Source of the DNA: a virus
IMG/VR virus record: IMGVR_UViG_3300016665_000824
Location: 32,001-96,000 of that record
Reading direction: 5' to 3' (one strand)
DNA length: 64,000 nucleotides
The position numbers and the translations under genes were made by a program. The notes beneath the pieces are model-generated. The model saw nothing but the letters and a program-made list of their open reading frames with translations, did no database searches and was not told the DNA's origin. Numbering within the stretch: position 1 is the stretch's first letter; every line of letters begins with the position of its first letter. Positions 5,322-63,089 of this stretch are shown here, piece after piece.

Positions 5322-5352
5322 GGTAACAAGGACTTGAGTCCTTGTTACCTTA
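5319..5352. terminator. Strong hairpin (15-bp stem, 4-nt loop) spanning the stop codons of two convergent genes
   Basis: TAAGGTAACAAGGAC-TTGA-GTCCTTGTTACCTTA; no flanking U-tract. Confidence 0.45.
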
Positions 5353-8300
5353 CTCCGCTAGTAACACCCGCTACTCGTCTCAAGACATTATTAAGCGTGT
5401 CATTAACAGCCTTCTGGACATCATTGCCCACACCCGCCGCAGAACTAATGTTGCTTTGAGTATTGATAGCGATCGGGGCATTAACCGTAATATTTCCACT
5501 TGTACCCAGAGCCGCACCCGTAGGATTGCCCTGTTGCTGAGGAACAAGATCTTTACCGCCAAGACTACCGAAAGCCTGCGCCAATGCCTCCGCTCTTTGA
5601 AGTTGTCCTTCGTCAAGCAAGGCGATCGGCTTGTCGAGTTTCTTCTGGGCTTCCTCAAATGCCTTGTCGTCGATCTTCAATGTCACGGGGTTCTCGGAGA
5701 TTTGCTTCGACACACGGTTAAATTCCGCTTCCAGTCCTGCGGTTAAATCTTTAACCTTGAGATCTGGGGCAACCAACACCTTGGAGAAGCCTTCATCGAT
5801 TTGCTGAGTTAACTTGTCGAACGAAGACGCGATCGCCTGTTCTGGCTTTGCTTCCTCCGTAGGTTTGCCACCGTACTTAGCGTTAAGCTCCTCAAACGAG
5901 TTGGCTTGAGCAGGATACTTCTTGTTAAGCTCCTCAAAGCTGCCTGCCATGCCCTTGTCGGGATATTTCTTGGCTAACTCCTCAAAGCTAGTAGCGAACG
6001 GTGCGTTATCAGGCTTTGGTTCGGGTGCAGCCGTAAATACTCCGCCCTGCTCAACCTGCCCAAGCAATGCCGAGGTGGGGTTCTTAAACGAAGCACCGCG
6101 AACATTAACAGGTTGGCTTGCCGCAGCCACAGCATTACTTACATCCGTGGTAGTCAATGCTGCTGTACCCGTATTTTGAGTTAAGCGAGCAAGCTGCTCT
6201 CGTTGTAGGCGCTCTTGCAGCGCAGGATCTCTAGTTGCGCCAATAACATCGCCGATCGCCGTATTAGTTTCGCCTTGCTGTTTATTGGCAAGAGCTTGAC
6301 GATCATTCTTGTTGACAATCTCGTTAACCTTGGCTTCGTCGGCAATGAAACCCTTTTCTTGCTGCAATCCACCCAATTCAAGAAAGTTCTTCTCCTGTCC
6401 AAGCTTGGCTTGAGCAAGTTTAAGCTTCGCCTCTTCGGACTGGGGACGTAGTTTAACCTCCAACTCGGCGGCTTTGATAGCAGCATCCTGTGAGGCAATG
6501 TCCACCTTCTTCTTGGCGATCGCGATTTCATTTTCGACCTTCTTGCGTTCAAGCAATAGGTCACGCTTCTGGATTTCCCGCTCCAAGGACTCGGCTTCAA
6601 ACTTTTGCTGTTGCTTGAGGGAATTAAGCTTAAGAACGGCAAGTTTTTCCGCAAGAATCAGCTTTTTCTCTTCGAGTTCGAGATCGGCAAAGTTGCCCTG
6701 ACCACCTGCGGCACGGATGGCAGCTTGTTGGCGATCGTAGATCTTGTTGAGAGCAGCAAACTCTGACTCGCGTAATGCCACTGTAGACTGGGCAAGTTTA
6801 TTTGCCGACTCGGATAGGCGGCTTTGATTCTCAAGCCCCTTTTCTAGTGCGGTGAATAATAGTTTTTGACGTTCAAGCTTGAGGTTTTGCTGCTCAATCG
6901 TGACCGCATACTTTTGTGATTCCAAGACTAGGCGATCGCGCACTGCGGAAACTAATCCTTCAATCGCCGCGAGTTCGGCTTCAGCGAGCTGTTTGGATAG
7001 TTCAGCAACCTTGATTAGATTAGCGTTCTTAGTTTCCTTGCTAACACCAACGCCCTTCTTCTCAAGATCGGCGATCGCCTTCTGCTTTTGTTGTTCGAGT
7101 TGCAGCTCTAAAGTGATACTGCGTTTACGTTCGGCAGTTTCTTGAAGCTTAATTTCAGATTCAAGCTTAATTCCCGACTTGCGGAGTTGAGCTATCTGAG
7201 CAAGACGCTGAGTCTCGCCAACCTTTTCGGCGGCAAGGGTCTCCTTAATCTGTGCATCCAATCCCTTAACAAAGCGCTCGGAACGGGCTTTGGCTATTTT
7301 TGCCTCAGCGTCCTTCCGTTTGTTGTCGGCATCCTCTTCTAATCGCGCTTTCTGGGCGGCGGTAGCCTTAACTAGATCAAGCTCTTTTTTGTTTGCGTCA
7401 GCAATAGAGTTTTTCGCCAAGTTTTGACGTTCGGCATCTGGCTTTGCGATTGAGGAAAGTTGATCCCTCTTTGTCTGCAACGTCCGAAGTTCAGACTCTT
7501 TCTTGGCGATCGCGTCCTGTTCCGCCTTGATCTGTGCGGTGTACTCCGAGGAATTAAAAAATGGCGCGTCTTTTACGGTGTTGAATCGCTGTAATGTCTC
7601 CGCATTCCCAGCTTTCAGACTAGACAAGGCTTTTTCCCCATCTTCAATCTGCTTCGTAATTCCCTCTAGCTGTCCCTGAGTATCCTCTGACAACTTTAAG
7701 GTGCTATCCAAGGTTCCTTTCTGGCTCTGGAGGCTATTAAGTCTTGATTGCAACACAGCAAGCTCGTCCGTTACTTTCTTAACGTCCTCGGCAGCGTTAT
7801 CTCCCGCAACACCCGTACTTATAGACTCTTGGAGAGCCTTCTTCCTTGCCTCTGCATCTTTGATCTGTTGACTGGTATCGTCGATCTTTCCTTGCAAGAC
7901 AGGAGCTTGAGCTTCCCTGACCTGCCGTATCTTTGAAGGATCTCCAGTTGCAGCAGCTAACTGCGCTTCCGCCAACTCGCGATCGCGCTTAATCTGTTGT
8001 TTCTGCTCATTAGCGTTGGTCTCCAAGATCTGCTGTCTTGCTCTTAGAGCCTTTTGATCGGCTTCAGACTGGGCTTGAATCTTCTTCTCCTCTAATTGTC
8101 CAGAGAGGGCGATCGATTCAGACTCAGAGATTCGCCCCGTGGCGAGCAAAGCTTGAATCTGGGAAAGTTGAGCGTCATAAATAGCTATGCGGCGATCCGC
8201 CTCCTTTTTGTACGCGGCAGTAATCGCTTCTTGAGCCTTTATCTGTAAATCGCGATCGGCAGAGACATTCGTAGCTACTTTTTGAAACGCTCCCGCAACT

Positions 8301-11300
8301 TCGTCTGCACGGAGAATCCCTGCATCTTGAAGGGCGTTAGCCGTTTCAAGCAACTCGCCCAACTTCGCCTTAAATAGCGCAGGATCTCCCGCAGACTTGT
8401 TTAAAGCGTCAAGGGCTGCATTATATTTTGAAGTTGCCTGCTCGATCGCATTACCAATACGAGGAAGATCAATAGCCTGAATTTGCAGGTTTACCGACTT
8501 GTAGGATTCTTGAAGTTTTCTAAGGGCTTCAAGTTCTCGATCTCTTTCTGCGTCTAAACCTTCTACAGCTTGAACCTGATTAATGATTGCCTCGATATTG
8601 TTGTTTCTTTCGGCGATCTCCTTCTTCTTATTCTCGATCTGAATATCAAAACGCGCAGCACCATCTTTGTCGCTTAGCGCTTCCGCCTTGGACTTTTCCT
8701 GCTCTAATTTAATTAAATCCTCTTGGAGTTTCTTCTGAGCAGACAGTCCTATTCCTAGATCAACCCGCCGAGAAGCTGACTGATTTAAGACGTTTTTATT
8801 ATCTTGCAATCTTATTTGGACGGCTTTCTCTTCAAGATTTCCTGCGCGATCGCCTAGACCTAACTTGTCGGAAGCGCCAAACGTTACCGTTCTTAGCCCC
8901 TCTCTTGCCGCGTCACCTGTAAGAGCAAAACCTTCTGTAACGCGAGTACCAATATTGTCTCTCTCTTTTTTAACCTTCTCCCTCAACGCGTCTTCGGAGT
9001 TGGTTGGTTTGCTTTGTAATCCCCTCAACTCTTTGAGTTTTGCGAGCTGTTGATCATACAGCTTTAAAGTGGGGTCATCTTGGAGGATGCTCTTGTCTTG
9101 GATTGAGGCAACATATTTTTCGCGTTCTGAGGTTAGGTTTGCTAGCTCAGAAGCGGCATCCTTTCCTTGCGATTTGTTTAGGATCGCAACCCTTGCGTCA
9201 CTATCTTTGAGCGCATCGTTGAGTTTGTCTACATTGGCTGTAGCTGCTTTTGTTTCCTGATCGACGTAGCCAACCAAGGTTGTTATTGCGGCGAAAGCTG
9301 CGCTTAACAATAATGTAGGACCAATTTCTGCGGCGAGGGCGGCGAAGGATTTGCTGATACCTTTGACATTCTCGGAAATAAACGAGGTAGCGCCTACAGC
9401 ACCCTTTTTGAGGTTTGAATAAAGTCCACCGACACTAACGTTCGCGTTTTGAGTGAAATCAGCAAAGCTAGACTTAGCTCGCGAGCCAAAATCTTTGACA
9501 CCAGAAAGAGCATCTTGGAAACCTGTCTTTAACCCAGCACCTAAATTTTTGAGGCTTAAATCGGGGAGAGAAATAGACTTGACTTGATTGACAAACTTAT
9601 CTATAGCGATACGAGAATTAGCCAAAGAAGCGGGAATATTTAGCTCTCTAAAGAACTTATCGAGTCCCAGTCTCGCGTTTGCAAGAGAGGTAGGGACGTT
9701 GATCTGGGAAAATGCTTTTTCAACCCCGTTGCGGAGGTTTACCAGCGAGGCAGGAATGTTGATATTTGCAAAGGCGTTCCGAATGCTAGCTTTAGTATTC
9801 TCAATTTGCGCGGGGAGATTTGCAAAGATACCAGTTTTTTGACTCGAATCCTGACTGAACCTTCCCTTAATGTCAGATATAAAACTACCAATAGAGTCGC
9901 CCAAGGACTTCAAAGAAGTTTTTGTCTTTGTGGCGATCGCTCCAATATCTTCTGCGAACTGTTTTGTGAACGGGACGGGAATTGGATTGGCAATAATCTG
10001 ACTTCGGAGCGACTTGATTCTGTCGGTAGTCTCCTGATAACTTTTAAGAGCCGCCGCACGAGCTTCGGGGGTTAACGACAGATCTGTAGAGTCTTTTTGG
10101 CTCACGATCGCCTGCTGTTTTAGTCCAGAGACCTCTCGTTTAGCGGCGACAACCTGAGTAGGATTTAGAGTCGTTGACTGAACTGGCTTGCCCCCAAGTA
10201 TTTCTCGAACACTATCGTTTAGCTTCTTGATGCGCCCAAAGGTTTCGCCAATACTGGCTCCAGCACCGCTAATTCCCGTGTTAATTGTCTTAAATACATT
10301 GGAGATTGTGCCACCAAACAGCTTGGTAACAGCGATCGCGATTAGCAATCCGCCAACTACTTTTTGAAAAGGATTGGAGTTCTCGCCAAAAGTAAAGAAC
10401 GGCAATATCGTGTCTGCAACCACCTTAATTACTGGTGCTAATACCGACCCTACCGTATCCGCAAACTTACGAATAGCTGCGGTTACATCCTGAATGATTT
10501 TTTGTAGACCTTTGTTCTTCAGGATTAACTGATCGAAGAAGACAAAACCAACAAATGTTCCAGCACCCAACAAGGCTGTTGATACGGCAAAAGACCTTGC
10601 CGCAGCTCCTGCCGCTTTTAATGAATTAGAGAAGATGCTGTTTACTTTCTCGGTATTTGTAGCGACATCGGCAAACTTGCCCAAGCTCTTGGCTGCGTCC
10701 GCAATCAACGGGCTAAACGAGCCAAATAGTTGGGACTTACCAACAATGCCTGAGAAAGCTGTTAAGGCGATCGGCGCTGCCTTCGTAAATCCTTGCAGTG
10801 CGGTTCCTAGCGCAGGAAATGCTTGAGTAAGTCCAATCAGTTTTACCCCAAAGCCACCTAGTGTTGGCAAAGCGGCAGTTATAACTCCCGCGAATGGCGA
10901 GAACGCACCGAGAACTTTGCCCAACTCTTTTTGGACTAAGCCAGCAGCACCAGGGATCTTGTTTAGATTCTCCGCCAACAACAGGAATCCAGCAGACCCT
11001 CGACCGACAACCGAACTTAAATTAGCAAAAGTGTTGACAACCCCGTTAGTACGCTTGTCAAGCAGGAAGAGAACTTCTCCCAAACCTGGTACAAGATTAA
11101 ACATCAACGAGAAGCCTTTGTTTAATGCCCCGATCGCGCCCGAAAGAACTTTTGCGCCGACGGAGATGCCGATCCAAATCCCTCCAAGAGGACCTACAAC
11201 ACCTGCAATTTGTTCAAACACATTAATAGCTGGCTGAACAACAGCAAGAGTAAGGCTCATCGCATCGGAAAAAGCCTTTACTGCGCCAGCGAGAGACTTG

Positions 11301-13780
11301 AATAGGTATTCTGGAACCTGCCCAAAGATCTGGAAGAATGGCCCCGCGAGACTTTTTAGGGTCGCAATCACGTTCTTGAATACGTCAAACAGTATTCCTG
11401 CGAGACTCCCTACTTGAGCAGCGATCGCGTCTTTATTCTTTGAGAAATACTGGTAAAACCCGTCAAGTTCCGCTACTAAAGGTGCGAGGAATTTCTCCCC
11501 AGCGAGTCTGCCGATCTCATCAACTAGCTCTTGAATATTGCTAACAATCCCACCCACGGACTGAGCAGCTAGCTTGTTTCCAGACTTAAATGCTTCTAAT
11601 CGACCTAAAAGCTCTTTGACGAAGGTTCCTTGAGACTTCCACTTAGCCACCATCTCATTGTTGAGGTTAAGCGATTTGGCAAGAGCTGAGTTTTGGTCAA
11701 TAGTTCCCGAAGTTATACTAACAACCTCTTGACGGGCTTGATATAAAGGTATGCCAAGCGTTCCGAGTGCGGCGGCGAACGAGGTTGTAATATTAGCAGC
11801 GTCATTCAAGGACGCGCCAATGTTGCTTGCCTGCCCAGCAACGATCTGAAAAACCCCGACAAGATCTTTACTGGTTACGCCGACCAGCTCTAACGAGTCT
11901 TTACGAATTTTATCGATCGCCCCTTCAACCGCAGGGCCAACCGCCTTGATCGCTTGAGTTGGATCTGATACGCGATCGCCATTAACTACGATTCTATTGG
12001 TTGCCGCTAAGCTCGCCTGAGTAGAGAGTAGTTGCTCTTGGAGCCTGATGTTTTGCCCAATCAACAGATCGAAAGGGCCGTTTTGTACAAATCCTTGGAG
12101 TGCCTGCAATCCCAATCCCAAGAAAGCAAGTCTCTGAGATACTTCAAAGATCGCGTTGGTTGCCTTGCCAGCACCTTCGCTAATTAGATTGAATACTTCT
12201 AGTGGTTCCGTCGCCCCCGCCACTGGAGCAACCACTGCGGCGGCAATATCTACAGGTTCTTGCAGCTTCGGGGCTATCTCTTGAGTCTTTTGAAACCCCT
12301 TAACGATAACATCATCAACACTATCGATGACAGTACCGACTTCGGCAAGGATTGTTGATCTCAGTCCATCAACAAAATTCTTACCTGCGATCGCGCCAGT
12401 ATCTTTTAAAAGCGAACTAAATGTTCCGCCAAAAAACTCGTCAATCTTGGTTGCAAGTTTTTGCAGTGAGCCATCCCCGCTTCCGATAGAATCAATCGCC
12501 GCGCCCAACCCTCCGTCAATAGCATCGACAGCTTTTAGGGCTAAATTCCTGAGAGGCGCAAGGATGCTAGTATCTTCTACGCTAAACAAGCTATTGAGAG
12601 CCTGTCCAACGCCTCCCTTTTGAGTCTCTATTAAAGGGCGGAGGATGGCAAAAGCGGATCTTAAATCCTCTGGAATTGCTTTTTCTAGTCCATTAAATAA
12701 CTGTCCAGACAACGCATTTCCAAAATCTTGCAACTCATTAGAGGCAACAATCGACCCCAAATTTGCCACCCCGATCTTGTTGGCAATCAGTTTTGCTAGT
12801 GGTGGTAGTGGCAACTTATCTACAAGCTGAGGGATTCGCCCCGCTAGGCGGTTGATCAGCTCAGATACAGAGCCGCCTAACTGTTCGTCAAGAATTTTAA
12901 ATTGATCGGTCGCCTCAGATCTGCTGCCGACGATTGCCCTGCCGACCGATCCTCCTAAAGCGCTAGATAAGCGCCCTACAACTCTTTGTCCGTCCTCAAC
13001 GTTTGGCGCGATTGCGTTAACGGCAAAAGCTTTAGCAGCACCCGATACCGACCCACCAGCCAACTGCTTCGACACTTCCGACAGCAATCCAGTTTTTGCC
13101 GCAGTCCGAAATGAGTTGGCGACAATTGAGGTTAAATCCGCCCCGAAAGCTTGGTTAACAATACCTTTTAAAGCGTCGGGGAGTCCTCCCCCAACAACGC
13201 CCGAAATGAGTGAGTCGGCGATCGCGTTATCTAGCGTTCCAGTAAAAGCCTCAACTCCCACTCCAAGCTTGCGCTGAATTTCTTGATTTAGCTTTGAAGC
13301 CCTAACATTTGCTTCTAACGCTTTACCGAAACTGTTTGCAGAATCGCTAAGTATCTGCGTAATTCTCTTGCCGTTATCCGAAAATATTGCAGACTGAGCT
13401 TGCTCTGCCGACTGCTTAGATAAGAATCCTCCTCCGACATCTTTTCCTGCAGAGGTAATCCCCTTGATTACCTTTGAGAGCGGAGCTAGTTTTGAAACTG
13501 CACTGTCGGCGACATTCGAGATCTGTTCTAAAAATATTTTGCCCGACTGCGTATCTAGTACATCTCGAACCGACTGAATTGCGTCTCTCAGCCCTCCAAA
13601 CGTGCCAATCGCGGTTGCCCCTACCGTGCTGATCGTTCCGCCAAGGGCTTGTACAGATCCCTTTGTTACGTCCGCAACAACACCAACACTTTTTAGACCA
13701 GCAGCTATCTCCGAAACTTGTTTGCTTGCTTGATCTTTCGCCTGTATTAAGATCTCAACAATATTGGTTTGCGGAGCCAT
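5345..13780 (-). CDS. Giant virion protein, tape-measure-like (tail length tape measure or ejection/internal virion protein)
   Basis: Uninterrupted 2811-aa ORF; Gly/Ala/Ser-rich hydrophobic N-terminal third, long E/K/Q/A/L-rich coiled-coil centre, internal tandem repeats, position between head and tail-fiber genes. Confidence 0.6.
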   Translation of the reverse strand: MAPQTNIVEILIQAKDQASKQVSEIAAGLKSVGVVADVTKGSVQALGGTISTVGATAIGTFGGLRDAIQSVRDVLDTQSGKIFLEQISNVADSAVSKLAPLSKVIKGITSAGKDVGGGFLSKQSAEQAQSAIFSDNGKRITQILSDSANSFGKALEANVRASKLNQEIQRKLGVGVEAFTGTLDNAIADSLISGVVGGGLPDALKGIVNQAFGADLTSIVANSFRTAAKTGLLSEVSKQLAGGSVSGAAKAFAVNAIAPNVEDGQRVVGRLSSALGGSVGRAIVGSRSEATDQFKILDEQLGGSVSELINRLAGRIPQLVDKLPLPPLAKLIANKIGVANLGSIVASNELQDFGNALSGQLFNGLEKAIPEDLRSAFAILRPLIETQKGGVGQALNSLFSVEDTSILAPLRNLALKAVDAIDGGLGAAIDSIGSGDGSLQKLATKIDEFFGGTFSSLLKDTGAIAGKNFVDGLRSTILAEVGTVIDSVDDVIVKGFQKTQEIAPKLQEPVDIAAAVVAPVAGATEPLEVFNLISEGAGKATNAIFEVSQRLAFLGLGLQALQGFVQNGPFDLLIGQNIRLQEQLLSTQASLAATNRIVVNGDRVSDPTQAIKAVGPAVEGAIDKIRKDSLELVGVTSKDLVGVFQIVAGQASNIGASLNDAANITTSFAAALGTLGIPLYQARQEVVSITSGTIDQNSALAKSLNLNNEMVAKWKSQGTFVKELLGRLEAFKSGNKLAAQSVGGIVSNIQELVDEIGRLAGEKFLAPLVAELDGFYQYFSKNKDAIAAQVGSLAGILFDVFKNVIATLKSLAGPFFQIFGQVPEYLFKSLAGAVKAFSDAMSLTLAVVQPAINVFEQIAGVVGPLGGIWIGISVGAKVLSGAIGALNKGFSLMFNLVPGLGEVLFLLDKRTNGVVNTFANLSSVVGRGSAGFLLLAENLNKIPGAAGLVQKELGKVLGAFSPFAGVITAALPTLGGFGVKLIGLTQAFPALGTALQGFTKAAPIALTAFSGIVGKSQLFGSFSPLIADAAKSLGKFADVATNTEKVNSIFSNSLKAAGAAARSFAVSTALLGAGTFVGFVFFDQLILKNKGLQKIIQDVTAAIRKFADTVGSVLAPVIKVVADTILPFFTFGENSNPFQKVVGGLLIAIAVTKLFGGTISNVFKTINTGISGAGASIGETFGRIKKLNDSVREILGGKPVQSTTLNPTQVVAAKREVSGLKQQAIVSQKDSTDLSLTPEARAAALKSYQETTDRIKSLRSQIIANPIPVPFTKQFAEDIGAIATKTKTSLKSLGDSIGSFISDIKGRFSQDSSQKTGIFANLPAQIENTKASIRNAFANINIPASLVNLRNGVEKAFSQINVPTSLANARLGLDKFFRELNIPASLANSRIAIDKFVNQVKSISLPDLSLKNLGAGLKTGFQDALSGVKDFGSRAKSSFADFTQNANVSVGGLYSNLKKGAVGATSFISENVKGISKSFAALAAEIGPTLLLSAAFAAITTLVGYVDQETKAATANVDKLNDALKDSDARVAILNKSQGKDAASELANLTSEREKYVASIQDKSILQDDPTLKLYDQQLAKLKELRGLQSKPTNSEDALREKVKKERDNIGTRVTEGFALTGDAAREGLRTVTFGASDKLGLGDRAGNLEEKAVQIRLQDNKNVLNQSASRRVDLGIGLSAQKKLQEDLIKLEQEKSKAEALSDKDGAARFDIQIENKKKEIAERNNNIEAIINQVQAVEGLDAERDRELEALRKLQESYKSVNLQIQAIDLPRIGNAIEQATSKYNAALDALNKSAGDPALFKAKLGELLETANALQDAGILRADEVAGAFQKVATNVSADRDLQIKAQEAITAAYKKEADRRIAIYDAQLSQIQALLATGRISESESIALSGQLEEKKIQAQSEADQKALRARQQILETNANEQKQQIKRDRELAEAQLAAATGDPSKIRQVREAQAPVLQGKIDDTSQQIKDAEARKKALQESISTGVAGDNAAEDVKKVTDELAVLQSRLNSLQSQKGTLDSTLKLSEDTQGQLEGITKQIEDGEKALSSLKAGNAETLQRFNTVKDAPFFNSSEYTAQIKAEQDAIAKKESELRTLQTKRDQLSSIAKPDAERQNLAKNSIADANKKELDLVKATAAQKARLEEDADNKRKDAEAKIAKARSERFVKGLDAQIKETLAAEKVGETQRLAQIAQLRKSGIKLESEIKLQETAERKRSITLELQLEQQKQKAIADLEKKGVGVSKETKNANLIKVAELSKQLAEAELAAIEGLVSAVRDRLVLESQKYAVTIEQQNLKLERQKLLFTALEKGLENQSRLSESANKLAQSTVALRESEFAALNKIYDRQQAAIRAAGGQGNFADLELEEKKLILAEKLAVLKLNSLKQQQKFEAESLEREIQKRDLLLERKKVENEIAIAKKKVDIASQDAAIKAAELEVKLRPQSEEAKLKLAQAKLGQEKNFLELGGLQQEKGFIADEAKVNEIVNKNDRQALANKQQGETNTAIGDVIGATRDPALQERLQREQLARLTQNTGTAALTTTDVSNAVAAASQPVNVRGASFKNPTSALLGQVEQGGVFTAAPEPKPDNAPFATSFEELAKKYPDKGMAGSFEELNKKYPAQANSFEELNAKYGGKPTEEAKPEQAIASSFDKLTQQIDEGFSKVLVAPDLKVKDLTAGLEAEFNRVSKQISENPVTLKIDDKAFEEAQKKLDKPIALLDEGQLQRAEALAQAFGSLGGKDLVPQQQGNPTGAALGTSGNITVNAPIAINTQSNISSAAGVGNDVQKAVNDTLNNVLRRVAGVTSGVR
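5872..6000 (-). repeat. Three imperfect tandem ~42-48-bp repeats near the 3' end of the giant ORF
   Basis: Encodes SFEELAKKYP / SFEELNKKYP / SFEELNAKYG. Confidence 0.65.
9581..9820 (-). repeat. Four tandem 60-bp (20-aa) repeats inside the giant ORF
   Basis: Encodes NIPASLVNLRNGVEKAFSQI / NVPTSLANARLGLDKFFREL / NIPASLANSRIAIDKFVNQV / NLPAQIENTKASIRNAFANI. Confidence 0.7.
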
Positions 13781-27990: not shown

Positions 27991-28554
27991 TTGAATATGG
28001 CAGTAAAAAGTAAAGTCAAGCTCGGCGCGTATATCGGGCGAAGGCTGGAGCAGGAACGTACCGATGCCGATTACGGTCAGCAAGAAGTCATTAATGAGAT
28101 CCACAGAATAACGTCATCCCCAGAAGTTATTGCTGCGCTAGAGATATCTGTCGCCGCAAACCTAACCAAGTTTCGAGAGTTTCGAGGCAAACGCCAGAAA
28201 GATTTAGCCGCAGATCTAAACAACTTGCGCGATACCTTGCATGGCGTAGGTATAGATACTGAAGTGTCTGGCGATGTGTCTTGGATGTCTAAGGTTGAGA
28301 ATAGCGATCGCATCATGCAGGCGGTCGAACTACGACTCTTTAGCCTTGCTTTGGGTGTTCCGATGGAGGCATTTTTCCCTAATGAGTTAAACGTACTAGC
28401 AGAAAGTAATGACCCGTTCGCCCCTTACCGATATCTGGGACGCAGTATCGAGGGTATTCAAAAGTATCGACATGTCAGCGATCGCAACAAAATTGCGATC
28501 GTTTATTGTTCAGAAGGGTTGTCTTTACCTGATGGTGTGGGGAAATATCTATGA
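27991..28554 (+). CDS. Hypothetical protein, first gene of accessory island
   Basis: 187-aa ORF; CCACAAA direct-repeat element ~40 nt upstream; ATGA overlap with next gene. Confidence 0.5.
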   Translation: MNMAVKSKVKLGAYIGRRLEQERTDADYGQQEVINEIHRITSSPEVIAALEISVAANLTKFREFRGKRQKDLAADLNNLRDTLHGVGIDTEVSGDVSWMSKVENSDRIMQAVELRLFSLALGVPMEAFFPNELNVLAESNDPFAPYRYLGRSIEGIQKYRHVSDRNKIAIVYCSEGLSLPDGVGKYL

Positions 28555-28784
28555 GTGTTTATTCAAGCCCCGAATTCACTGGTACAATCATTCGAGAAAG
28601 CCATGAGAGTGGCGTTTTGCTAGTCACGGTCGTAGAGTTACCAGGGCTAGTCTTAGTGCTCAACTCCCATAGCGAAGAAGAAATCGTATTGCCCCAAGCT
28701 ATTAGATCGTATCTAAGTCTTGAGGAGCAATTGAAGATTAAGCGATCGCGACCCAAAGTCACAGCAGTAAAAATATCCATCTAA
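28551..28784 (+). CDS. Small protein with HicB-like (UPF0150-type) features
   Basis: 77 aa; VTVVELPGLV resembles the PELPGC motif of HicB-type antitoxins (from memory). Confidence 0.35.
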   Translation: MSVYSSPEFTGTIIRESHESGVLLVTVVELPGLVLVLNSHSEEEIVLPQAIRSYLSLEEQLKIKRSRPKVTAVKISI

Positions 28785-28812: not shown

Positions 28813-30786
28813 ATGTCCTATGAAGCCCTGCCGTCGGGAAGCTTAGTCAAAGCTCCCATCGATCTGATCGAAACTCATCCACAGAACCCCGCCCCTACAT
28901 CACAGAGGTATAGCGAAATATTGGGGTATCCCGTCAGGGTTGAGGATGCTCAGGTCGAGTCCCTGATTGAACTACTAAGGGCGGAGGGCTACAACCCCAA
29001 TAAGCCTATGCTGCTCAGACCAGTTGGCGATCGCCTCCAAGCCGTTGAGGGCAACCACCGTTTTGTGGCAATGTGGATGCTCACCAAGGTACTCAGAGAG
29101 TTTGAACAGGACTATATTCCCGCGATCGTGGATGAAGATCTATCCGAAGAGGACGCTCTGATTAAGTTGAGTACTCTTAATACTCAGCGCAGGATGGAGG
29201 GTTGGCGGTTAGCTCGATTGGCTTACTACACTTGCGTTGAGAAAGGCATGTCTCAGCCTGAGTATGCGGCAAAGGTGGGATACGTCCTTGAGGGTGGAAA
29301 GCCAAATGGTCCACGGATTTCTAAGTTGATTCAAGCCTGTCGATTTGTTGACTATATTGCTGCCAACTCACCGATTGAAGAACTGCAAGACGTTGAGGCT
29401 TTAACCGAACCTAAGAACGGTTTGTTTAGGTCAGTTGATCGCGTCGTTGAGTTTATGTACCTCGACCAAGAGGACTGGTTATGGATTGCAGAGTTCTACC
29501 TCCGTCATCACATGCAGATCTCGGCAAAACAACGAGTCAACCTAGCCAAGGCGATCAAAGATACAAAGGATTTGCTCAACAGATCTACCTCGTATCCCGA
29601 TCGCTGGAGTCAATGGTTGCGCTGGGAGTATATACGCGGAGAGGTCGCTAGTCAGTGTGCGGCAAACGAGGAGTCCCAATTAGCCAAGAGTTTATTACCC
29701 CAACTAATTTCTGAGGCGAATAAAACCTACGAGTCGGACGACTTGCCATTCATTCACAACTATCACGAAGTTACTGGTAACAGGGTTGAAGAGAAAACTG
29801 CCAATCTCAAGGAGGAATTTCGTGCTGAGTTAATCAAGCAGATCGAAGGGCGTAGTGCCAAGTTTTACAGGCTTGTTGATGTTGCTGAAGCTGCGCGGAC
29901 TGTGATCGATCGCTATGCGTTTATCGATCAGAAGTACGAAAACTTCAAAAAGATCGAAAACACGGTACATATCGAGCAAGAGATTGTTGCGATCGCACCT
30001 CCGACGACCTCAAAGTCAAAATCTACGCCAACAACATCTACGCGATCGCCTGTTGCAGAAACAAAGCCCAAGCTTGATACCGAAAAGCGAGTGTGGATTG
30101 AGGAACAATATCAGCCAAAAGGCATGGTTTCTTCTCTAGAAGATTATGCTTTCCACGGCGGCAAACAGTACGGGCTGATATTCTCCCGTCTTGGCAATAG
30201 CGGCATGGAGGACTTCTTTCAAAATACCGACTATATCTATAGAACGCTTACCGAAGATGGAGTATTCGCACTGATATTGCCGCATAAATATTCCTTCGCG
30301 GTAATTGAGGAGCTTGAGTATAAGGTAGCTAACTCTAGTCGCTTACACCTTCGAGGGTTGGATGGCGGCATATATTCCGATGATGAAAAGCCGAGATTGG
30401 CGATCGCCGCATCAAACCGTACATTGATTCATCAAGAGTACGAAGAATTATTATTGTTCACCACTCAAGACGATACTCCTCTGCCATTGCGATCGCCTCT
30501 CCCTCGGATGGCGCTGGAGCCAGTTCACGATATTCTGACCGCTTTTGGCGACCTGAGCGAGCCGTTCTTAGATCCGTTCGCCTTCAGTGGTGAGGTCGTA
30601 GTCGCAGCAAAAAGTCTTGGGTATCGGTGCGACTATCTCGTACAGACTCCAAACCAGTTGGACTTGGTTACGCGCTGGTGCGATCGGACTGAGTTTCCTG
30701 AGAGTCTACTTAGATTTGCGGAAGAGTTTACTCATTTTGATGAGGCACTGTTTAGTGATCGAGCAACTACTCGTGCAAGATCCTGA
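28813..30786 (+). CDS. ParB-like nuclease domain protein with degenerate methyltransferase-like C-terminus
   Basis: 657 aa; N-terminal LLRPVGDRLQAVEGNHRFVAMW fits ParB/Srx fold; C-terminal LDPFAFSGEVVVAAKSLGYRCDYL aligns to MTase motif I (DPFxGSGTT) with glycines replaced; no DPPY motif. Confidence 0.55.
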   Translation: MSYEALPSGSLVKAPIDLIETHPQNPAPTSQRYSEILGYPVRVEDAQVESLIELLRAEGYNPNKPMLLRPVGDRLQAVEGNHRFVAMWMLTKVLREFEQDYIPAIVDEDLSEEDALIKLSTLNTQRRMEGWRLARLAYYTCVEKGMSQPEYAAKVGYVLEGGKPNGPRISKLIQACRFVDYIAANSPIEELQDVEALTEPKNGLFRSVDRVVEFMYLDQEDWLWIAEFYLRHHMQISAKQRVNLAKAIKDTKDLLNRSTSYPDRWSQWLRWEYIRGEVASQCAANEESQLAKSLLPQLISEANKTYESDDLPFIHNYHEVTGNRVEEKTANLKEEFRAELIKQIEGRSAKFYRLVDVAEAARTVIDRYAFIDQKYENFKKIENTVHIEQEIVAIAPPTTSKSKSTPTTSTRSPVAETKPKLDTEKRVWIEEQYQPKGMVSSLEDYAFHGGKQYGLIFSRLGNSGMEDFFQNTDYIYRTLTEDGVFALILPHKYSFAVIEELEYKVANSSRLHLRGLDGGIYSDDEKPRLAIAASNRTLIHQEYEELLLFTTQDDTPLPLRSPLPRMALEPVHDILTAFGDLSEPFLDPFAFSGEVVVAAKSLGYRCDYLVQTPNQLDLVTRWCDRTEFPESLLRFAEEFTHFDEALFSDRATTRARS

Positions 30787-30822
30787 TCGGTTAAGCGTGG
30801 GTAGCCACGACGCTTGTTCAAG

Positions 30823-30863
30823 GCAATAAAAAAGGAGTCCAATTGAGACTCCTTTTTTATTGC
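30823..30863. terminator. Bidirectional intrinsic terminator
   Basis: 17-bp perfect stem GCAATAAAAAAGGAGTC / GACTCCTTTTTTATTGC with 7-nt loop, A/T tracts on both sides, between convergent genes. Confidence 0.7.
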
Positions 30864-30869
30864 TGTAGT

Positions 30870-31595
30870 TTAATCAAAGAATTTTCTAACCGCCGCTTCT
30901 ACATCCTTGTTTGGCATCGGGTAGCACCAAATCGGCATCATCCGACCATTGCAAATCCTTTCTTCTTGTTTGCCAAGAGCCTCGCAAGTAGCTTTGACAA
31001 ATTTTCCTAATGTGGTGCGGTTTTTAGCTGTTACGGGCAAACTCAAAGATTCAGCAATTTCTACGGCTCCCATCCACTTTGTCTCCGAGGCTGGAGCGAT
31101 CGCCTTGATAACAGCCATTGCGTCGTTGATCGCAACATCTACAAGCATTTGACATAAGCGAGGGTCGGAATCAGCAAGCATATCCTTGATCTCAAAGACT
31201 GACTTCGCTGTTTCGAGTGCTATTACACGAGAGGGCAATGCGGGAACAGGAGTGGGGGTAGTAGGCACTGATTGTAACAATGCCTTCGCCTTAGAGAAGG
31301 CTTCAACCAGATCGAGCTTGCTCTGAACAACGGCTACCGTGTTTCGGCTCAGGGTCATTAAAGCGGTCGCTTGGTCTTCGTTGAGTAGCGCAAATTTAGG
31401 AGGGTTCCCTGTCGCCTTTTCGGGGACTCCGATTTTAAATCGGATACCCGCGAACCTTGCTTCAATCATGTCTTGGTACTTCTTGATGTTCCGCATAAAG
31501 CTCTCGTGATCAATCCCAAGTCGCTCGGCAATCAGTCGAGAGTCAACAAGCAATTCGCCATCTTCATTGATGATTGGTACAATACTTTCGGACAT
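30870..31595 (-). CDS. Rha-family phage regulatory protein
   Basis: 241 aa; N-terminal LLVDSRLIAERLGIDHESFMRNIKKY matches Rha domain pattern. Confidence 0.6.
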   Translation of the reverse strand: MSESIVPIINEDGELLVDSRLIAERLGIDHESFMRNIKKYQDMIEARFAGIRFKIGVPEKATGNPPKFALLNEDQATALMTLSRNTVAVVQSKLDLVEAFSKAKALLQSVPTTPTPVPALPSRVIALETAKSVFEIKDMLADSDPRLCQMLVDVAINDAMAVIKAIAPASETKWMGAVEIAESLSLPVTAKNRTTLGKFVKATCEALGKQEERICNGRMMPIWCYPMPNKDVEAAVRKFFD

Positions 31596-31726: not shown

Positions 31727-32686
31727 ATGTCTGAATACTATTTATACGGCGATCGCGAAGGTAATGCTCTTGATCGGTTAAAAGCTTCTCGCCCTCAGCT
31801 AATCAATAAGCTTTACTACTGGGCTGGCAAACGGCTTGACTATCGGGTTAAGCATTCGCTTATGGCGGAGCAGGATGTTTCCAAGCAGGTTGATCGATAT
31901 CTAGAGGCGATTGCATTTGCTTCGTCGGAAAAGGATCTGCTAAACACGCTCAACAGTTGGAACCTCCTGTCACCTCAAGAGAAGGCGATTATGGCAAAGC
32001 TGTTCCCCTTCAAACCAAATCATCGGTTTGATCCTACAAATTTACAGTTTGAAGGATGGTTTACTGGGTGTAATTGGTACGAATTGAGAAAGGGCGAGTA
32101 CATCACCGCAGAAGAGGAAGTTCTTGACGGCATTGCCTATCAAGGACAGGAAGTAGCGATCATCACAAAGAATGCTTACGAGGCAGAAGTTTTGAACGCC
32201 AAGAATATGATGATTGTTGACGTGGATCTTGAGGGTGATCAGGCGATCGTGCAGAATGCTCAGTTCGCTCTTGACGTACTTCGATCTTTTATTAGCAACA
32301 CAAAAAATTGGGATCTAGGCTTTAGGGTTTACAAAACTGCGGCAGGTTTGAGATATATCTGCACGACCCATGAATTTGAAGCGACAGATCCTCTTAGCGA
32401 CAAGATTATGCGTAATTTACTCGCTGATGATCGCTACCGAGCTTTGTGTAAATTCCAAGATACCTATCGCGCTCGATTAACTCCAAAACCTTGGCGAGCT
32501 TCTGACATTGCGTGGCGTAATCGCGGAGTGTGGGATGTTTCAGGCGAATGGGTGGAATATTTCAGGGTGTGTGACTCGCTTAGCCTCTACGGAAATACTA
32601 ATATCCTTCCCCAGTTCGCCAAGGCGATCGAATACCATGATCGAATCACAAATGTCTTTGCCGATCCAAAACTAATCCTCGCGTAG
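31727..32686 (+). CDS. Hypothetical protein
   Basis: 319-aa ORF; inverted CCACAAA dyad ~30 nt upstream. Confidence 0.5.
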   Translation: MSEYYLYGDREGNALDRLKASRPQLINKLYYWAGKRLDYRVKHSLMAEQDVSKQVDRYLEAIAFASSEKDLLNTLNSWNLLSPQEKAIMAKLFPFKPNHRFDPTNLQFEGWFTGCNWYELRKGEYITAEEEVLDGIAYQGQEVAIITKNAYEAEVLNAKNMMIVDVDLEGDQAIVQNAQFALDVLRSFISNTKNWDLGFRVYKTAAGLRYICTTHEFEATDPLSDKIMRNLLADDRYRALCKFQDTYRARLTPKPWRASDIAWRNRGVWDVSGEWVEYFRVCDSLSLYGNTNILPQFAKAIEYHDRITNVFADPKLILA

Positions 32687-49595: not shown

Positions 49596-50051
49596 ATGTC
49601 TAACTCTAGTTCTGCCACAAAATTGGCGATCGCAAGATTAAAAGGATCTGACCTGCCTATTTTTGTTCCAGTTTCAGTCTCTGAGAAAGTCGCAACCCTA
49701 GTCAGGGAGTGTATTTTACAGTCCGACAGTTTAAAGATATTAAAAGTTACTACTACAGTTTACAACGAGCTTACTAAGCATTTAAAGCAGTACGAAAAGC
49801 CAAAATATACCATTCCTCAGTATCTTTTGATGCTCCTATATACGGTTTCTACTACTTCAGAATTGATCGAAAAACACAACAAGGGTTTAATTTCAGATGA
49901 CGAGTTTATTAACTGTATCAAAAACAACAAAAACGCAAACGGGACTAAAACCTCCCGCAAAATGGGTCGGAAGAAAGCAAGCGTTGATGCCAGCGATCGC
50001 GCAGTACTTCCCCGCGAGGTTCACAAAAGAACCAGTTCCAAGGTTTCTTGA
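49596..50051 (+). CDS. Hypothetical protein; 3' end overlaps methyltransferase start
   Basis: 151-aa ORF; ~155-nt overlap with next gene in another frame. Confidence 0.35.
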   Translation: MSNSSSATKLAIARLKGSDLPIFVPVSVSEKVATLVRECILQSDSLKILKVTTTVYNELTKHLKQYEKPKYTIPQYLLMLLYTVSTTSELIEKHNKGLISDDEFINCIKNNKNANGTKTSRKMGRKKASVDASDRAVLPREVHKRTSSKVS

Positions 50052-50814
50052 TTTCAAAAAGGGTGTCGGCAATTTCCACGACCCTTTCGTTGGTACTGGT
50101 AGTGCATTTTTGTATTTTGCGGATGGATTTCGAGGCGATCGCAAGATTTTTATTAGTGACAGTAATCCTGAACTCATTAATATTTGGCTGTGCATTCAAG
50201 CCGATCCTCTAAGGCTTTTAAGATCCTTGCTTGAATACAAGCGCCCTGTATTTAACAGCGCCGAATCGTACTATCACGAAAGGCAGATCTTCAATCAGCA
50301 GTTTAAAGGTTCTTACGACTACGAGCTAGCAGCAAGAATGATCTACTTAATTCAGGCTGGTTTCAATAGCCTATGGAGGGTTAACAGCGACGGTGAAATG
50401 AACACGCCTTTTGGCTCTCAGAAGCAAATTGCCCTTCTTACCGAGAATGATTTGACCGCGCTTTCGGTTCTCCTTCAAAAAGCGACAATCAAACATCAGC
50501 CTTTTGAAGAGTCGCTAAAAGATGTACAACCCAATGATGTCGTCTATCTCGACCCGCCATACATTGAAGTCAAAAAGAATTCCTTCAATAAATACACCAC
50601 AAAAGGTTTTAGCAGAGAGCAGCAGATACTCCTCCGCCAAGAAGCCGATCGCCTGCACGATCTAGGCGCTTATGTATACGCCAGTAATAGCGATACCCCC
50701 TTGAGTCGCGAAATTTGGTCGGGCTGGAAAATCGCAGAACTGACGAGATCGGGCTGCATGAACTCAGATGCAACCAAGCGTCAACGGGTTGGAGAGTTGT
50801 TATTTTATAAATAA
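49897..50814 (+). CDS. dam: DNA N6-adenine methyltransferase, Dam (D12) class
   Basis: KWVGRK N-terminal motif, FVGTGS motif I, VYLDPPY motif IV. Confidence 0.8.
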   Translation: MTSLLTVSKTTKTQTGLKPPAKWVGRKQALMPAIAQYFPARFTKEPVPRFLDFKKGVGNFHDPFVGTGSAFLYFADGFRGDRKIFISDSNPELINIWLCIQADPLRLLRSLLEYKRPVFNSAESYYHERQIFNQQFKGSYDYELAARMIYLIQAGFNSLWRVNSDGEMNTPFGSQKQIALLTENDLTALSVLLQKATIKHQPFEESLKDVQPNDVVYLDPPYIEVKKNSFNKYTTKGFSREQQILLRQEADRLHDLGAYVYASNSDTPLSREIWSGWKIAELTRSGCMNSDATKRQRVGELLFYK

Positions 50815-51418
50815 AAAAAGCCAGTCGCGGGACTGGCTACAGGTAAAACAACAAAAGACAACTAAGCGGAAATCAACATATACCGAGCATTTGTGGAGAA
50901 CAGCTCAGGCACTTATGGATATTAGCACAGAATTAAAACAAATCACTGTGAGATCGATGCGAGGAGGCAGCTTTTCGTTCGGTCCTCACGATATTCGAGT
51001 CGATCGCGGGTCGATCTTAGGCAATCCCTACGAGATGGCGAAAGATGAATCCAATCGCGATCGCGTATGCCTTGCCTACAAGCACTGGCTATTTGCAAAT
51101 ATTCGGTACTGGCTGGACATGAAAGAAAAAGGCATTGCAAAGGCTCTCTGGTGGCATATCGATCCAAAGAGCATAGCGATCGCCTCGGATTTAAGAATTG
51201 CTCCGTCGTGGAAGCAGTTCACTGTTGCTCAGGTGGAGAGTGAATTTACTCGCCTCTGCTATGAAGCAACCCAGCACGATATCAACCTCATTTGCTGGTG
51301 CTTTCCAAAAGCTTGCCATGCGGATGTACTGCGAGCAGCCTTGATCTGGTACTACGAGGAGCATTACTTAAAGGAGTGCTCACGGATTGAAACGACTATT
51401 AAAGAATTTTTTAGGTAA
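50768..51418 (+). CDS. DUF4326-like small protein (real start probably ~50908-50956)
   Basis: GSILGNPY and LICWCFPKACHADVL motifs recalled from DUF4326-type proteins; N-terminal part of track ORF spans a hairpin. Confidence 0.4.
   Translation: MQPSVNGLESCYFINKKSQSRDWLQVKQQKTTKRKSTYTEHLWRTAQALMDISTELKQITVRSMRGGSFSFGPHDIRVDRGSILGNPYEMAKDESNRDRVCLAYKHWLFANIRYWLDMKEKGIAKALWWHIDPKSIAIASDLRIAPSWKQFTVAQVESEFTRLCYEATQHDINLICWCFPKACHADVLRAALIWYYEEHYLKECSRIETTIKEFFR
50819..50838 (-). terminator. Terminator-like hairpin oriented for the minus strand
   Basis: AGCCAGTC-GCGG-GACTGGCT preceded by A7 on plus strand (U7 after hairpin on minus); directly after Dam stop. Confidence 0.35.
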
Positions 51419-52874: not shown

Positions 52875-54632
52875 CTAGCTAGCGATCGCCATTAATTTAG
52901 TCAACCCAGCCTTCCGCAACATCTCTTGCTGGAGCTTGGTTTGAAAATATGGCTTATCCTCAGCACTTGCTACTCGATACAGTTCCAGCCAGTATTTCTC
53001 CCGCTTCTCGCAGTGTATATGCTGAATCTTGGCGATCGCACGGTCAACCACTGCCTTGACATCGCCAGCGATCGCCTCTTGCATTGCGTAAGGTATGTCC
53101 GAAAAGTCATCGTTCAGGAATTTATCCCACAGCGCACAGTGATCGTCATGGGCAAATTCGATCTCTTGAAGCAGGATATACCCCCGCAAATCGGGATGAT
53201 GGACAAAGGCTTTTAGTATCTGCATTTCGGCTAGTTGCAGAGCAGTATAACTGGGTTTTGCGGCAACCTGTGGTGATTCAGATCGGAATACCGATCGCGC
53301 AAGTCGATGTAAATCCTCCTCAATGCGTACGGCAAGGCGAGCATTTCCCTGAGCTAACTTCTGAGCACACTTATGGGTATAGTGGCTACGTCGGGCATCC
53401 ATCGGCAATGGGGCGAGTATTTGCGCGATCGCTTGATTAGCTCGCTGGAAGTCGGCAGAATTGTTAAGGTCTTTGCCCTTAATCTCAAGGTCAATTAACC
53501 AGTCAAGGTATAGCGGCGCTTCGCGGAGCAGCGATAAGTACGCTTCAGAACCATAAGTGGTTAGGTACTCGTCGGCATCTTTTTTGCCCTCAATGGTTAG
53601 TATCCGTAGATTTACCGTACCATCCAGAACTAGCTCTAGGACTTGACTTACGGCTTTTTTAGTTGCCGTAACACCTGCTTTGTCCGAGTCGAAGTTGCAA
53701 ACTATACGCTTCGACTCAGTATGGCGTAAAACCTGTTTAATTTGAGCGGCGCTAAGCGCTGTGCCCATTGAGCCGACTGCATGGGTAATTCCATTTTGGT
53801 GCAGGGAAATCACGTCGAGGTGTCCTTCGACAATTACCGCCTCGTCGTTCTTGGCGATCGCCTCACAAGCTTTGTCTAGTCCAAACAGTAGTTCACCCTT
53901 TTTGAACAACTCGGTTTCGGGCGAGTTGATATACTTTGCGCCGTCGTCCTCACCGCTTAGCGATCGCGCAGAAAATCCAACCACGCGACCACGGATATCG
54001 GCGATCGGGATAATCAGGCGATCGCGAAATCGGTCATAGTAGCCTTCGTTTTCTTTGCGAGGTATCGCCAACCCCAATTCTTCAAGAGTTTGAACGGGGA
54101 TATTTAACTCGGCAAGGTTACTCCACCCCGCAGGCGCGTAACCGAGCTTGAACTTATTGCAGGTATCTCTGGTGATTTTGCGTTTTTCTAAGTAGGCAAG
54201 GGCTTTGGTGTTGAGCTGTTGCTGGTAGTAACGAGTGACTTTAGCTATTTGATCGAAGAGGTATTCCCTGTGCGATCGCTCCTTAACGATTTGCTCGGCA
54301 TGTTCTGGCTCTTCGGTTCTTACTTCAACCCCGTAACGACCAGCCAAATCTAGTACGGCATCTGGGAACGATTTATGACCAATCTCCATCATAAACTTGA
54401 TCGCACCACCCGACGCACCGCAGTTATGGCAGTAATACATGCCTTTGCTGGGGTCTACCGAGAGGGCGCTGGGATTCGTGCCGTTGTGAAATGGGCAAGC
54501 GCCACGAAATGAGTGACCCGACCGCTTAAGTACGACGTTTTCGCTAACGACATCAACGATGTCGGCTTTGTCGTTTACTGCGGCGATCGTATCAGCATGG
54601 ATTCGGAATGATTTAGGTTTGGCGGATTGCAT
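52875..54632 (-). CDS. dnaG: DNA primase, DnaG-type
   Basis: N-terminal CHC2 zinc finger (CPFHNGTNPSALSV...YYCHNCGASGG), central polymerase region, TOPRIM-like EGHLDVISL and DSDKAG. Confidence 0.85.
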   Translation of the reverse strand: MQSAKPKSFRIHADTIAAVNDKADIVDVVSENVVLKRSGHSFRGACPFHNGTNPSALSVDPSKGMYYCHNCGASGGAIKFMMEIGHKSFPDAVLDLAGRYGVEVRTEEPEHAEQIVKERSHREYLFDQIAKVTRYYQQQLNTKALAYLEKRKITRDTCNKFKLGYAPAGWSNLAELNIPVQTLEELGLAIPRKENEGYYDRFRDRLIIPIADIRGRVVGFSARSLSGEDDGAKYINSPETELFKKGELLFGLDKACEAIAKNDEAVIVEGHLDVISLHQNGITHAVGSMGTALSAAQIKQVLRHTESKRIVCNFDSDKAGVTATKKAVSQVLELVLDGTVNLRILTIEGKKDADEYLTTYGSEAYLSLLREAPLYLDWLIDLEIKGKDLNNSADFQRANQAIAQILAPLPMDARRSHYTHKCAQKLAQGNARLAVRIEEDLHRLARSVFRSESPQVAAKPSYTALQLAEMQILKAFVHHPDLRGYILLQEIEFAHDDHCALWDKFLNDDFSDIPYAMQEAIAGDVKAVVDRAIAKIQHIHCEKREKYWLELYRVASAEDKPYFQTKLQQEMLRKAGLTKLMAIAS

Positions 54633-57397: not shown

Positions 57398-57997
57398 GTG
57401 GTTTCTTGGGAATCTCAAGAACGCTTTGGTTGTTTTTTACACTTTAGTTTCGTAGGAAATTTAGTTATGCTCTCAAGCGAAGAATACATACGCGACAGAC
57501 AAGACTTCGGTTGCTGGGAAGCCCGTATATTTTACTCCCCAGAATTAGATGCCGTTGTTGCGGCAGGTTTTATGGATGGGTTGATCTTCAACAAGGAAGA
57601 ACTCTTCCAGCTAGGCTCATTACTCCTTGATGCCTCAATTAACGTTTCGGGTAAAGACATCTGCCACCTCAATAATCGGACATCGGCGAGAGGTCGTTCT
57701 GACAAGGATTTTTGGCTACAGCGCAAGAATAGATCTGGACTCGTGTATCTAATCAAGGCGATCGGGACTAACTACTACAAAATTGGTAGAACAAAAGATA
57801 TTGAGACTAGATTAGAGACCCTGCAAAAGTCATCTCCATTCGACCTCTCGCTGATTCTTGCCATAGAAACATCAGACTCTTTGGCTCTAGAGAGGTACTT
57901 CCACGATAAGTACAATGATTGTCGAGTTAGGGGTGAGTGGTTTGAGCTAGATGAGTATGCGATCGCTGAATTTATGAGCTACGAGGAGGTCGCGTGA
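57398..57997 (+). CDS. T5orf172 (GIY-YIG-like) domain protein
   Basis: GLVYLIKAIGTNYYKIGRTKDIETRLETL matches T5orf172/MUG113 pattern; start may be internal. Confidence 0.6.
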   Translation: MVSWESQERFGCFLHFSFVGNLVMLSSEEYIRDRQDFGCWEARIFYSPELDAVVAAGFMDGLIFNKEELFQLGSLLLDASINVSGKDICHLNNRTSARGRSDKDFWLQRKNRSGLVYLIKAIGTNYYKIGRTKDIETRLETLQKSSPFDLSLILAIETSDSLALERYFHDKYNDCRVRGEWFELDEYAIAEFMSYEEVA

Positions 57998-62824: not shown

Positions 62825-63089
62825 CACAGTTGGTTTGATTTTTGGTAAGGAAGATAGCAGGACAGAGCAGGAAATCTCTGAGCTTGCGGAGGTCGTAAAA
62901 GCGGCTGGAATTAAGAGAAACCCTGCCATGTTTGCAAGATTTATTTACACACTCGACAAGACAAAAACCTGTCACCCGTCGATTGACCGTGAAGCCTTTC
63001 TGCTAACACTTCAAGAAGTATGGGAAGAGAAGGGACTCCAAGGACTTTCTCTCGCTGAAGAAATATATCAAAGAGGTTTTACAAGATGA
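62817..63089 (+). CDS. Small hypothetical protein
   Basis: 90-aa ORF. Confidence 0.5.
   Translation: MSDTVGLIFGKEDSRTEQEISELAEVVKAAGIKRNPAMFARFIYTLDKTKTCHPSIDREAFLLTLQEVWEEKGLQGLSLAEEIYQRGFTR

Follow-up and report, generated by a model that had tools for sequence, protein, structure and literature searches.

What does a methyltransferase fold do in a phage protein whose catalytic motifs appear to be gone? The question is raised by a 64,000-nucleotide stretch of viral DNA (IMG/VR record IMGVR_UViG_3300016665_000824, positions 32,001 to 96,000), referred to here as the window and used for all coordinates unless another contig is named. An open reading frame (ORF) at 28813..30786 on the + strand, starting with ATG, encodes a 657-amino-acid protein in which a ParB fold is fused to a degenerate beta-class methyltransferase. 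A preliminary description, made from the DNA letters alone, had placed this ORF exactly and proposed a ParB-like nuclease domain joined to an inactivated methyltransferase, possibly a pseudo-enzyme retaining only DNA binding. We are highly confident of the four-part anatomy listed below and of the loss of catalysis. Disorder is given by the predicted local distance difference test (pLDDT) of the AlphaFold2 (AF2) model.

28813..30786, + strand: cassette gene 3, fusion of a ParB fold and a dead beta-class methyltransferase, 657 amino acids
28840..29367, + strand: ParB/Srx nucleoside triphosphate (NTP)-binding fold (residues ~10-125), then a helix-turn-helix (HTH; residues ~130-185)
29368..29997, + strand: helical middle domain (residues 186-395) with an invariant EDWLW motif (D221, W222) and a long C-terminal helix
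29998..30069, + strand: disordered Ser/Thr/Pro/Lys-rich linker (residues 396-419), pLDDT <50, poorly conserved
30070..30714, + strand: catalytically degenerate beta-class N6A/N4C DNA-methyltransferase-like domain (residues 420-634)
30187..30198, + strand: motif IV position, R459-L460-G461-N462 in place of D-P-P-Y, from MAFFT and hhalign
30571..30594, + strand: motif I remnant, D587-P-F-A-F-S-G-E594
30640..30642, + strand: V610 at the motif II position, from alignment columns

The C-terminal domain has a beta-class methyltransferase fold

The N6/N4 methyltransferase homology claimed for the C-terminus in the preliminary description is borne out, and it is of the beta-class, PF01555 type. An N6_N4_Mtase domain is carried by 11 of 36 remote ParB relatives, several of them intact beta-class enzymes in which DPPY is followed 130-177 residues on by DPFxGxG. 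Alignment of the family C-domain with the methylase domains of these relatives by hhalign gave a probability of 95.2% (E=2.8e-8) over the motif X/I/II region; homology was found, with catalytic motifs that are not intact. When a profile of the family plus its clade was used, the best PDB sequence matches were the beta-class proteins M1.HpyAVI and TTHA0409, in two co-linear segments (E~0.04). The domain has a Rossmann-like methylase fold with the permuted motif order IV ... X-I-II. A search of viral folds returned full-length structural matches to phage 'ParB/Sulfiredoxin' proteins, and the structural neighbours of the protein include the non-catalytic methylase paralogues METTL14 and MTA9.

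Catalytic and cofactor-binding motifs are degenerate

The tetrapeptide (D/N/S)PP(Y/F/W/H) is absent throughout every family member. This confirms the reported lack of DPPY, and its position can be located, as MAFFT and clade-profile hhalign (66.8%, E=5e-5) give the same register and place it at R459-L460-G461-N462. The equivalent position reads NISS in P0008, a divergent full-length orthologue (638 amino acids, ~28-31% identity), QITS in P0009 and EIPP in P0012, which is a partial match in the family-profile search. A loop of ~25 residues, present after DPPY in the intact cousins P0011 and P0013, has been lost, and in the AF2 model strand 453-459 leads to helix 462-478 with two residues between.

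The residues that bind S-adenosylmethionine (SAM) have also changed. The peptide LDPFAFSGEVVVAAKSLGYRCDYL (residues 586-609) had been read in the preliminary description as motif I with glycine replaced, and this reading holds for the first glycine: the motif is DPFAFSGE where an intact version would be DPFAGSGT, and relative to the canonical DPFxGSGT the first Gly has become Phe and the Thr has become Glu. DPFAFSGE is invariant in the close family, and P0008 and P0009 carry DPFCSNG and DPFSLGF. At motif II, V610 stands where intact relatives carry the Glu or Asp that binds the SAM ribose (...CELD, ...VEIN, ...YEID, ...VETS and ...VDVS in intact enzymes; ...LVQ, LVS and LIS in the family). Neither the FxGxG nor the acidic motif II residue of beta-class methyltransferases is therefore present (FAFSGE, V610). 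Taken together, loss of motif IV with its loop, of the motif I Gly and of the motif II acid argues that the C-terminal domain has almost certainly given up both DNA methylation and normal SAM binding, as judged from the sequence and the model.

The family belongs to a clade marked by an E(Y/F)xPxG block, in which states lacking motif IV or the loop are also found in P0017 (NPSS), P0025 (DPPA), P0020, P0024 and P0029, and DPPY and the loop are kept in P0011 and P0013. Because the clade mixes degenerate members with these intact ones, motif loss from an active ancestor is the parsimonious direction of change.

The degenerate domain is under strong purifying selection

Comparison with the 95%-identical orthologue on contig L001 gave a dN/dS of 0.030 for both the ParB fold with HTH and the middle domain, and of 0.035 for the methylase-like domain, with dS at 0.26-0.88 across the domain-wise comparison and at 0.88 for the methylase-like domain. 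The disordered linker has a dN/dS of 0.19 against ~0.03 in the other domains. A decaying remnant is ruled out by the value of 0.035, and because purifying selection is this strong the dead methylase domain is functional. Its conservation equals that of the ParB part and its gene order is fixed, which argues for a contribution of the fold besides methylation; recognising DNA, flipping bases without chemistry and dimerising are candidates. The protein is thus a natural separation-of-function variant for dissecting ParB-methyltransferase fusions.

The N-terminus is a ParB/Srx fold with an HTH

A ParB/Srx motif had been claimed for the N-terminus under the label "ParB-like nuclease domain". The ParB/Srx fold is confirmed by profile and structure evidence; "nuclease" is a historical Pfam name, and the activity is neither shown nor needed. 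Pfam ParB_N is carried by 35 of the 36 remote relatives, and the family profile matches Spo0J (1vz0) with E=0.0028 over residues 44-165, running on into the HTH. In that alignment EGNHRFVAM of the family lies opposite GERRYRAA. The alpha/beta fold contains the G-x-x-R of Box II (the P-motif) as G80-N-H-R83, with G80 and R83 invariant, and a Box III-like segment, L122-N-T-Q-R-R127. The Spo0J match, the ParB_N content of the relatives and the two invariant residues together argue for a ParB/Srx domain of the ParB-CTPase type followed by an HTH. This fold is now seen mainly as an NTP-binding switch that binds CTP, ATP or GTP in diverse fusions, and its nuclease activities are weak and non-specific (PMC12704722).

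The middle domain is modelled well (AF2 pLDDT mostly 80-94), and D221 and W222 are nearly invariant across 22 clade members. It gave no significant PDB or Pfam match, with faint Raf1_N-like signals at most.

A small family missed by standard annotation

Searches of Pfam and NCBIfam returned no match to the 657-amino-acid protein even at E<=10, so that the gathering thresholds of both PF02195 and PF01555 are not reached; P0008 scores 22.5 bits against PF02195, where the cutoff is 26.3. Assignment to PF02195 rests on the profile and structure evidence given above. A PADLOC scan was likewise negative for the protein, and PHROGs yielded one marginal match of unknown function. Six close homologues (64-95% identity, ~630 amino acids) were found among 5.8 billion clustered proteins, and when the family profile was run exhaustively with HMMER against 1.84 billion representatives, it gave just 38 matches at E<=1e-3, P0008 among them. 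No relatives were found in 185,579 GTDB representative genomes or in 50,697 deposited phages. Two more large-database searches with C-domain alignments added just two family fragments and ordinary PF01555 methylases. P0009 (253 amino acids) was considered as a stand-alone C-domain and rejected, because its 1.4-kb contig carries, in the frame upstream, coding sequence for the middle domain of the family; P0009 thus comes from a full-length gene that is frameshifted or fragmentary. Since several other clade members appear to lack motif IV, pseudo-methylase ParB proteins may form a recurrent, overlooked class that wholly escapes standard hidden Markov model (HMM) annotation.

A derivative of ParB-methyltransferase fusions

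Phages are enriched in fusions of the ParB fold to N6_N4 methylases, which rank there with the most frequent ParB-fold architectures, with function unknown (PMC12704722); this survey and the viral fold search support the earlier statement that such fusions are common in phages. We found no mention of inactive derivatives in the text of the survey (PMC12704722), in a literature check that was not exhaustive. The protein shares its architecture and common descent with ParB_N (PF02195)-N6_N4_Mtase (PF01555) fusions such as Wolbachia prophage WO Met and B. cereus Bce_0392. The E(Y/F)xPxG block, the middle-domain EDW motif and a C-terminal D..PF..F/W end are all shared with the nearest intact cousins, P0011 and P0013 (616 amino acids). 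Unlike such fusions, it lacks motifs IV, I and II and the loop after DPPY, has a larger middle domain, falls below every Pfam and NCBIfam threshold, and is fixed in a phage head module within a three-gene cassette. Because the methylase catalytic and cofactor features are missing and the HMM thresholds of both families are failed, we class it as a pseudo-methylase derivative of these fusions and not as a member.

Other known proteins are more distant. Identity to the beta-class enzymes M1.HpyAVI, M.BceJIV, M.MboIIA, TTHA0409, CcrM, M.RsrI and M.PvuII is 10-15%, and compared with them the protein has no catalytic tetrapeptide, substituted SAM-binding residues and a short target-recognition region. 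PadC, KorB and Noc are switches with the ParB-CTPase fold that do not act in partition; here Box II is GNHR and not GERR, and the C-terminal module is a dead methylase, not a ParB/KorB dimerisation domain. METTL14, Tetrahymena MTA9 and DNMT3L belong to eukaryotic MT-A70 or C5 families and are obligate partners of an active paralogue, whereas no such partner is evident for the 657-amino-acid protein, making this an analogy and not membership. Phage ParB176 is a non-enzymatic activator of the thymine dioxygenase 5mYOX176 (PMC13229309). Like it, the protein is a phage-encoded ParB fold outside partition, and the role of ParB176 in DNA modification is non-enzymatic; however, activators of this type have neither a DNA-binding domain nor a methylase fold and adjoin their enzyme (PMC13229309), and no dioxygenase is present here.

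A conserved cassette in the phage head module

The window is a phage genome segment with genes for the major capsid protein, a cement protein, a DUF2213-type head protease/scaffold, and Mu G-like (Phage_tail_S) and Mu F-like proteins; portal, DnaG primase and DnaB helicase genes are also present. The head protease gene and the Mu G/F-like genes flank a three-gene cassette of opposite orientation, and the fusion gene is the third gene of this cassette.

27997..28554, + strand: cassette gene 1, 185 amino acids, XRE-like HTH, start ATG 27997 (MAVKSK...)
28551..28784, + strand: cassette gene 2, 77 amino acids, overlapping gene 1 by 4 bp
30715..30826, + strand: insertion of ~110 bp unique to this copy, from DNA alignment with L001 and L006
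30823..30863, no strand: perfect 17-nt inverted repeat with A/T runs, kept in L001 and L006

The true start of gene 1 was inferred from orthologue alignment. Its HTH is inferred from the sequence pattern, because PADLOC support is just one weak match (HTH_VI, E=0.042). Gene 2, which lies 28 nt upstream of gene 3, has an ELPG...LPQAI motif that by eye may be HicB/UPF0150-like; it has no Pfam match, and PDB sequence searches with genes 1 and 2 found none. The promoter scan at the cassette did no better than shuffled sequence. Through the 30715-30826 insertion, the ancestral ...LFKA stop has been replaced by a 26-residue tail (residues 632-657, pLDDT <50) found in no orthologue. The insertion sits just 5' of the ancestral stop codon and has a small hairpin (AAGCGTGG...ACGCTT); a repeat element is ruled out, with no second copy in the window or related loci. 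The inverted repeat at 30823-30863 is a bidirectional terminator, common to the cassette and a convergent Rha-like gene.

The same cassette occupies the same position in the related contigs L001-L008 and also in the much more distant phage L009-L011. In the distant phage L009, the products of genes 1, 2 and 3 are 33%, 35% and ~30% identical to those of the window, whereas identity is 42-58% for the protease, capsid and Mu G-like proteins. By contrast, the active relatives are in plasmid-like or mobile-element contexts and not in a phage head module, because in the region L013 8001-12919 the gene for P0013 (ParB_N + N6_N4_Mtase, 616 amino acids) adjoins RepA_C replication-initiator and Mrr_cat restriction-type genes. 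L013 is a 326-kb contig that also has flavodiiron-type genes.

A separate gene at 49897..50814 (+) encodes a D12-class (Dam-like) N6-adenine methyltransferase (PF02086, E=7e-43) with intact DPFVGTG and DPPY; a DUF4326 gene at 50768-51418 (+) overlaps its 3' end. HIP1 (GCGATCGC) occurs 139 times in the window, or 2.2 per kb, against 1.3 copies expected, and the structural genes are also covered. Its density is 1.8-2.8 per kb in every related phage contig (L001-L012) versus ~0.5 per kb in L013, the contig of the intact ParB-methylase cousin. GATC stands at ~7-8 per kb in the phage segment, and the Dam-like methylase may be relevant to this HIP1/GATC richness. Because HIP1 is hyper-abundant in the window and related contigs, the sequence points to HIP1-rich cyanobacteria as hosts. 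The phage density matches or exceeds figures reported for cyanobacterial chromosomes.

A predicted non-catalytic DNA-binding protein and its alternatives

The best overall explanation, which we consider probable on balance, is a non-catalytic DNA-binding ParB/pseudo-methylase protein; to the mechanism by which it would act, DNA binding under an NTP switch, we give about an even chance. We hypothesize that the protein binds DNA without modifying it, with the ParB fold serving as an NTP-dependent switch in which the key Box II arginine, R83, is kept. The methylase-derived domain would give DNA contact and/or C-terminal dimerisation, taking over from the C-terminal domain of canonical ParB; dimers are numerous among beta-class methylases. 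The target would probably be the phage's own or host DNA, for regulation or protection, and methylation itself would be left to the separate, intact Dam-like enzyme. The earlier proposal of a pseudo-enzyme keeping just DNA binding is a reasonable inference. There is also a small chance that the dead domain reads sequence or methylation state (e.g. HIP1/GATC sites) and loads an NTP-gated ParB-type clamp. If so, this would be the first ParB-family switch to take its DNA specificity from an ex-enzyme instead of an HTH-parS pair, and the phage could coat, protect or regulate its own genome.

Several observations weigh against a non-catalytic DNA-binding protein as set out here. A search around the cassette for a parS-like repeat array, an operator or any further candidate binding site turned up just HIP1-derived repeats and the terminator hairpin. 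NTP binding is a prediction, and Box II is GNHR and not GERR. Because motif I keeps DPF and its second glycine, residual binding of SAM or a related ligand may persist. The AF2 model does not stand wholly apart from the homology claim, since the alignment behind it included real methylases; a family-only alignment of seven close homologues gave a pLDDT of 42.6. Lastly, when the profile was limited to the family, the C-domain's N-terminal half showed no detectable similarity to methylases (0.4% probability), and it is the wider degenerate-clade profile that raises this half to the 66.8% given above.

Of the alternatives, the one that survives best is that the ParB domain is an NTP-regulated, non-specific nickase or DNase acting on host or competitor DNA, which the dead methylase would target or tether. 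Such activity is reported for the Bacillus cereus ParB-methylase Bce_0392 and for Osa. Nuclease and NTPase activities of ParB/Srx domains have been summarised (PMC5512222), and the conserved active-pocket arginine R83 is present. We regard this as unlikely, if still deserving some weight, given that ParB-fold nuclease activities are weak and non-specific and NTP switching is favoured (PMC12704722), that Box II is GNHR, and that the context has no toxin/immunity pair or PADLOC match.

By analogy with METTL14 for METTL3, MTA9 in MTA1c, or ParB176 for 5mYOX176, the protein could instead assist a second DNA-modifying enzyme as its partner or activator without being catalytic itself; that enzyme would be the Dam-like methylase of the phage or a HIP1-associated methylase of the host. 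METTL14 and MTA9 are among the structural neighbours of the protein, there is a published case of a phage ParB-like activator (PMC13229309), and an intact methylase is encoded in the same genome. However, the Dam-like gene is ~19 kb distant and its product belongs to another class (alpha, D12), so that the two would not be expected to heterodimerise by way of a common fold; furthermore, the genes conserved next to the fusion gene encode an HTH protein and a 77-residue protein, not an enzyme. We view such a partnership as unlikely as well.

The site of the gene, with the head protease/scaffold on one side and the Mu F / Mu G-like genes on the other, would be explained by a virion-packaged, co-injected DNA protector (Dar-like anti-restriction) or by another anti-defence or superinfection-exclusion factor. 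ParB-fold proteins encoded beside virion genes and the packaged P1 DdrB are precedents (PMC5512222), the adjoining slot has fast-changing Rha, Bro-N and BstA_C genes, and Tad2/Acb2-like genes are nearby in relatives. This role is nevertheless improbable, as the cassette runs against the direction of transcription of the structural genes and opens with its own HTH regulator, no MuF fusion or protease-site evidence was found, and there is no match to a PADLOC or anti-defence family.

A DNA (or RNA) methyltransferase that is still active through an unconventional active site would account for an intact and strongly conserved fold with DPF and one motif I glycine remaining. We consider this very improbable: three independent cofactor or catalytic determinants are lost (DPPY with its loop, the motif I Gly that is now Phe, and the motif II Glu that is now Val), the motif IV position varies among subfamilies (RLGN, NISS, QITS, EIPP), unlike a catalytic site, no (D/N/S)PP(Y/F/W/H) occurs anywhere in the protein, and the phage already owns an intact Dam-like enzyme. 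Finally, although it has a ParB fold and an HTH, the protein is extremely improbable as the classical partition ParB of a plasmid-like prophage, with no NCBIfam ParB (TIGR00180-type) match, no ParA gene in the cassette at any of 11 loci, no parS-like repeats, and a methylase fold where the canonical dimerisation domain would be.

Other features of the window and related contigs

The slot 3' of the cassette is a gene-replacement hot spot, with Rha here and Bro-N, Bro-N+BstA_C, or BstA_C + HNH in relatives.

30870-31595 (- strand) and 31727-32686 (+ strand): slot 3' of the cassette in the window
L001 11944-12639; L006 11925-12668; L009 9982-11218: the same slot in related contigs
57398-57997 (+ strand), 52875-54632 (- strand), 59213-60952 (+ strand) and 63086-63823 (+ strand): replication-module genes

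In the window the slot also has an extra 319-residue ORF of no family; in PADLOC-DB, which covers anti-phage defence and anti-defence, this ORF has a weak match to PDC-M72B (E=0.0035), marginal like the HTH_VI match of gene 1. Tad2-like or Acb2/Tad1-like (anti-CBASS/anti-Thoeris sponge) genes lie beside capsid/neck genes at L001 3887-4135 and L006 2647-2967. No tRNA genes were found within the window. A giant ORF of 2811 residues occupies 5345-13780 (-) in the tail region, and the replication module encodes a DnaG-type primase, a DnaB-type helicase, a T5orf172/MUG113 (GIY-YIG-like) protein and a PNK-phosphatase/HAD protein.
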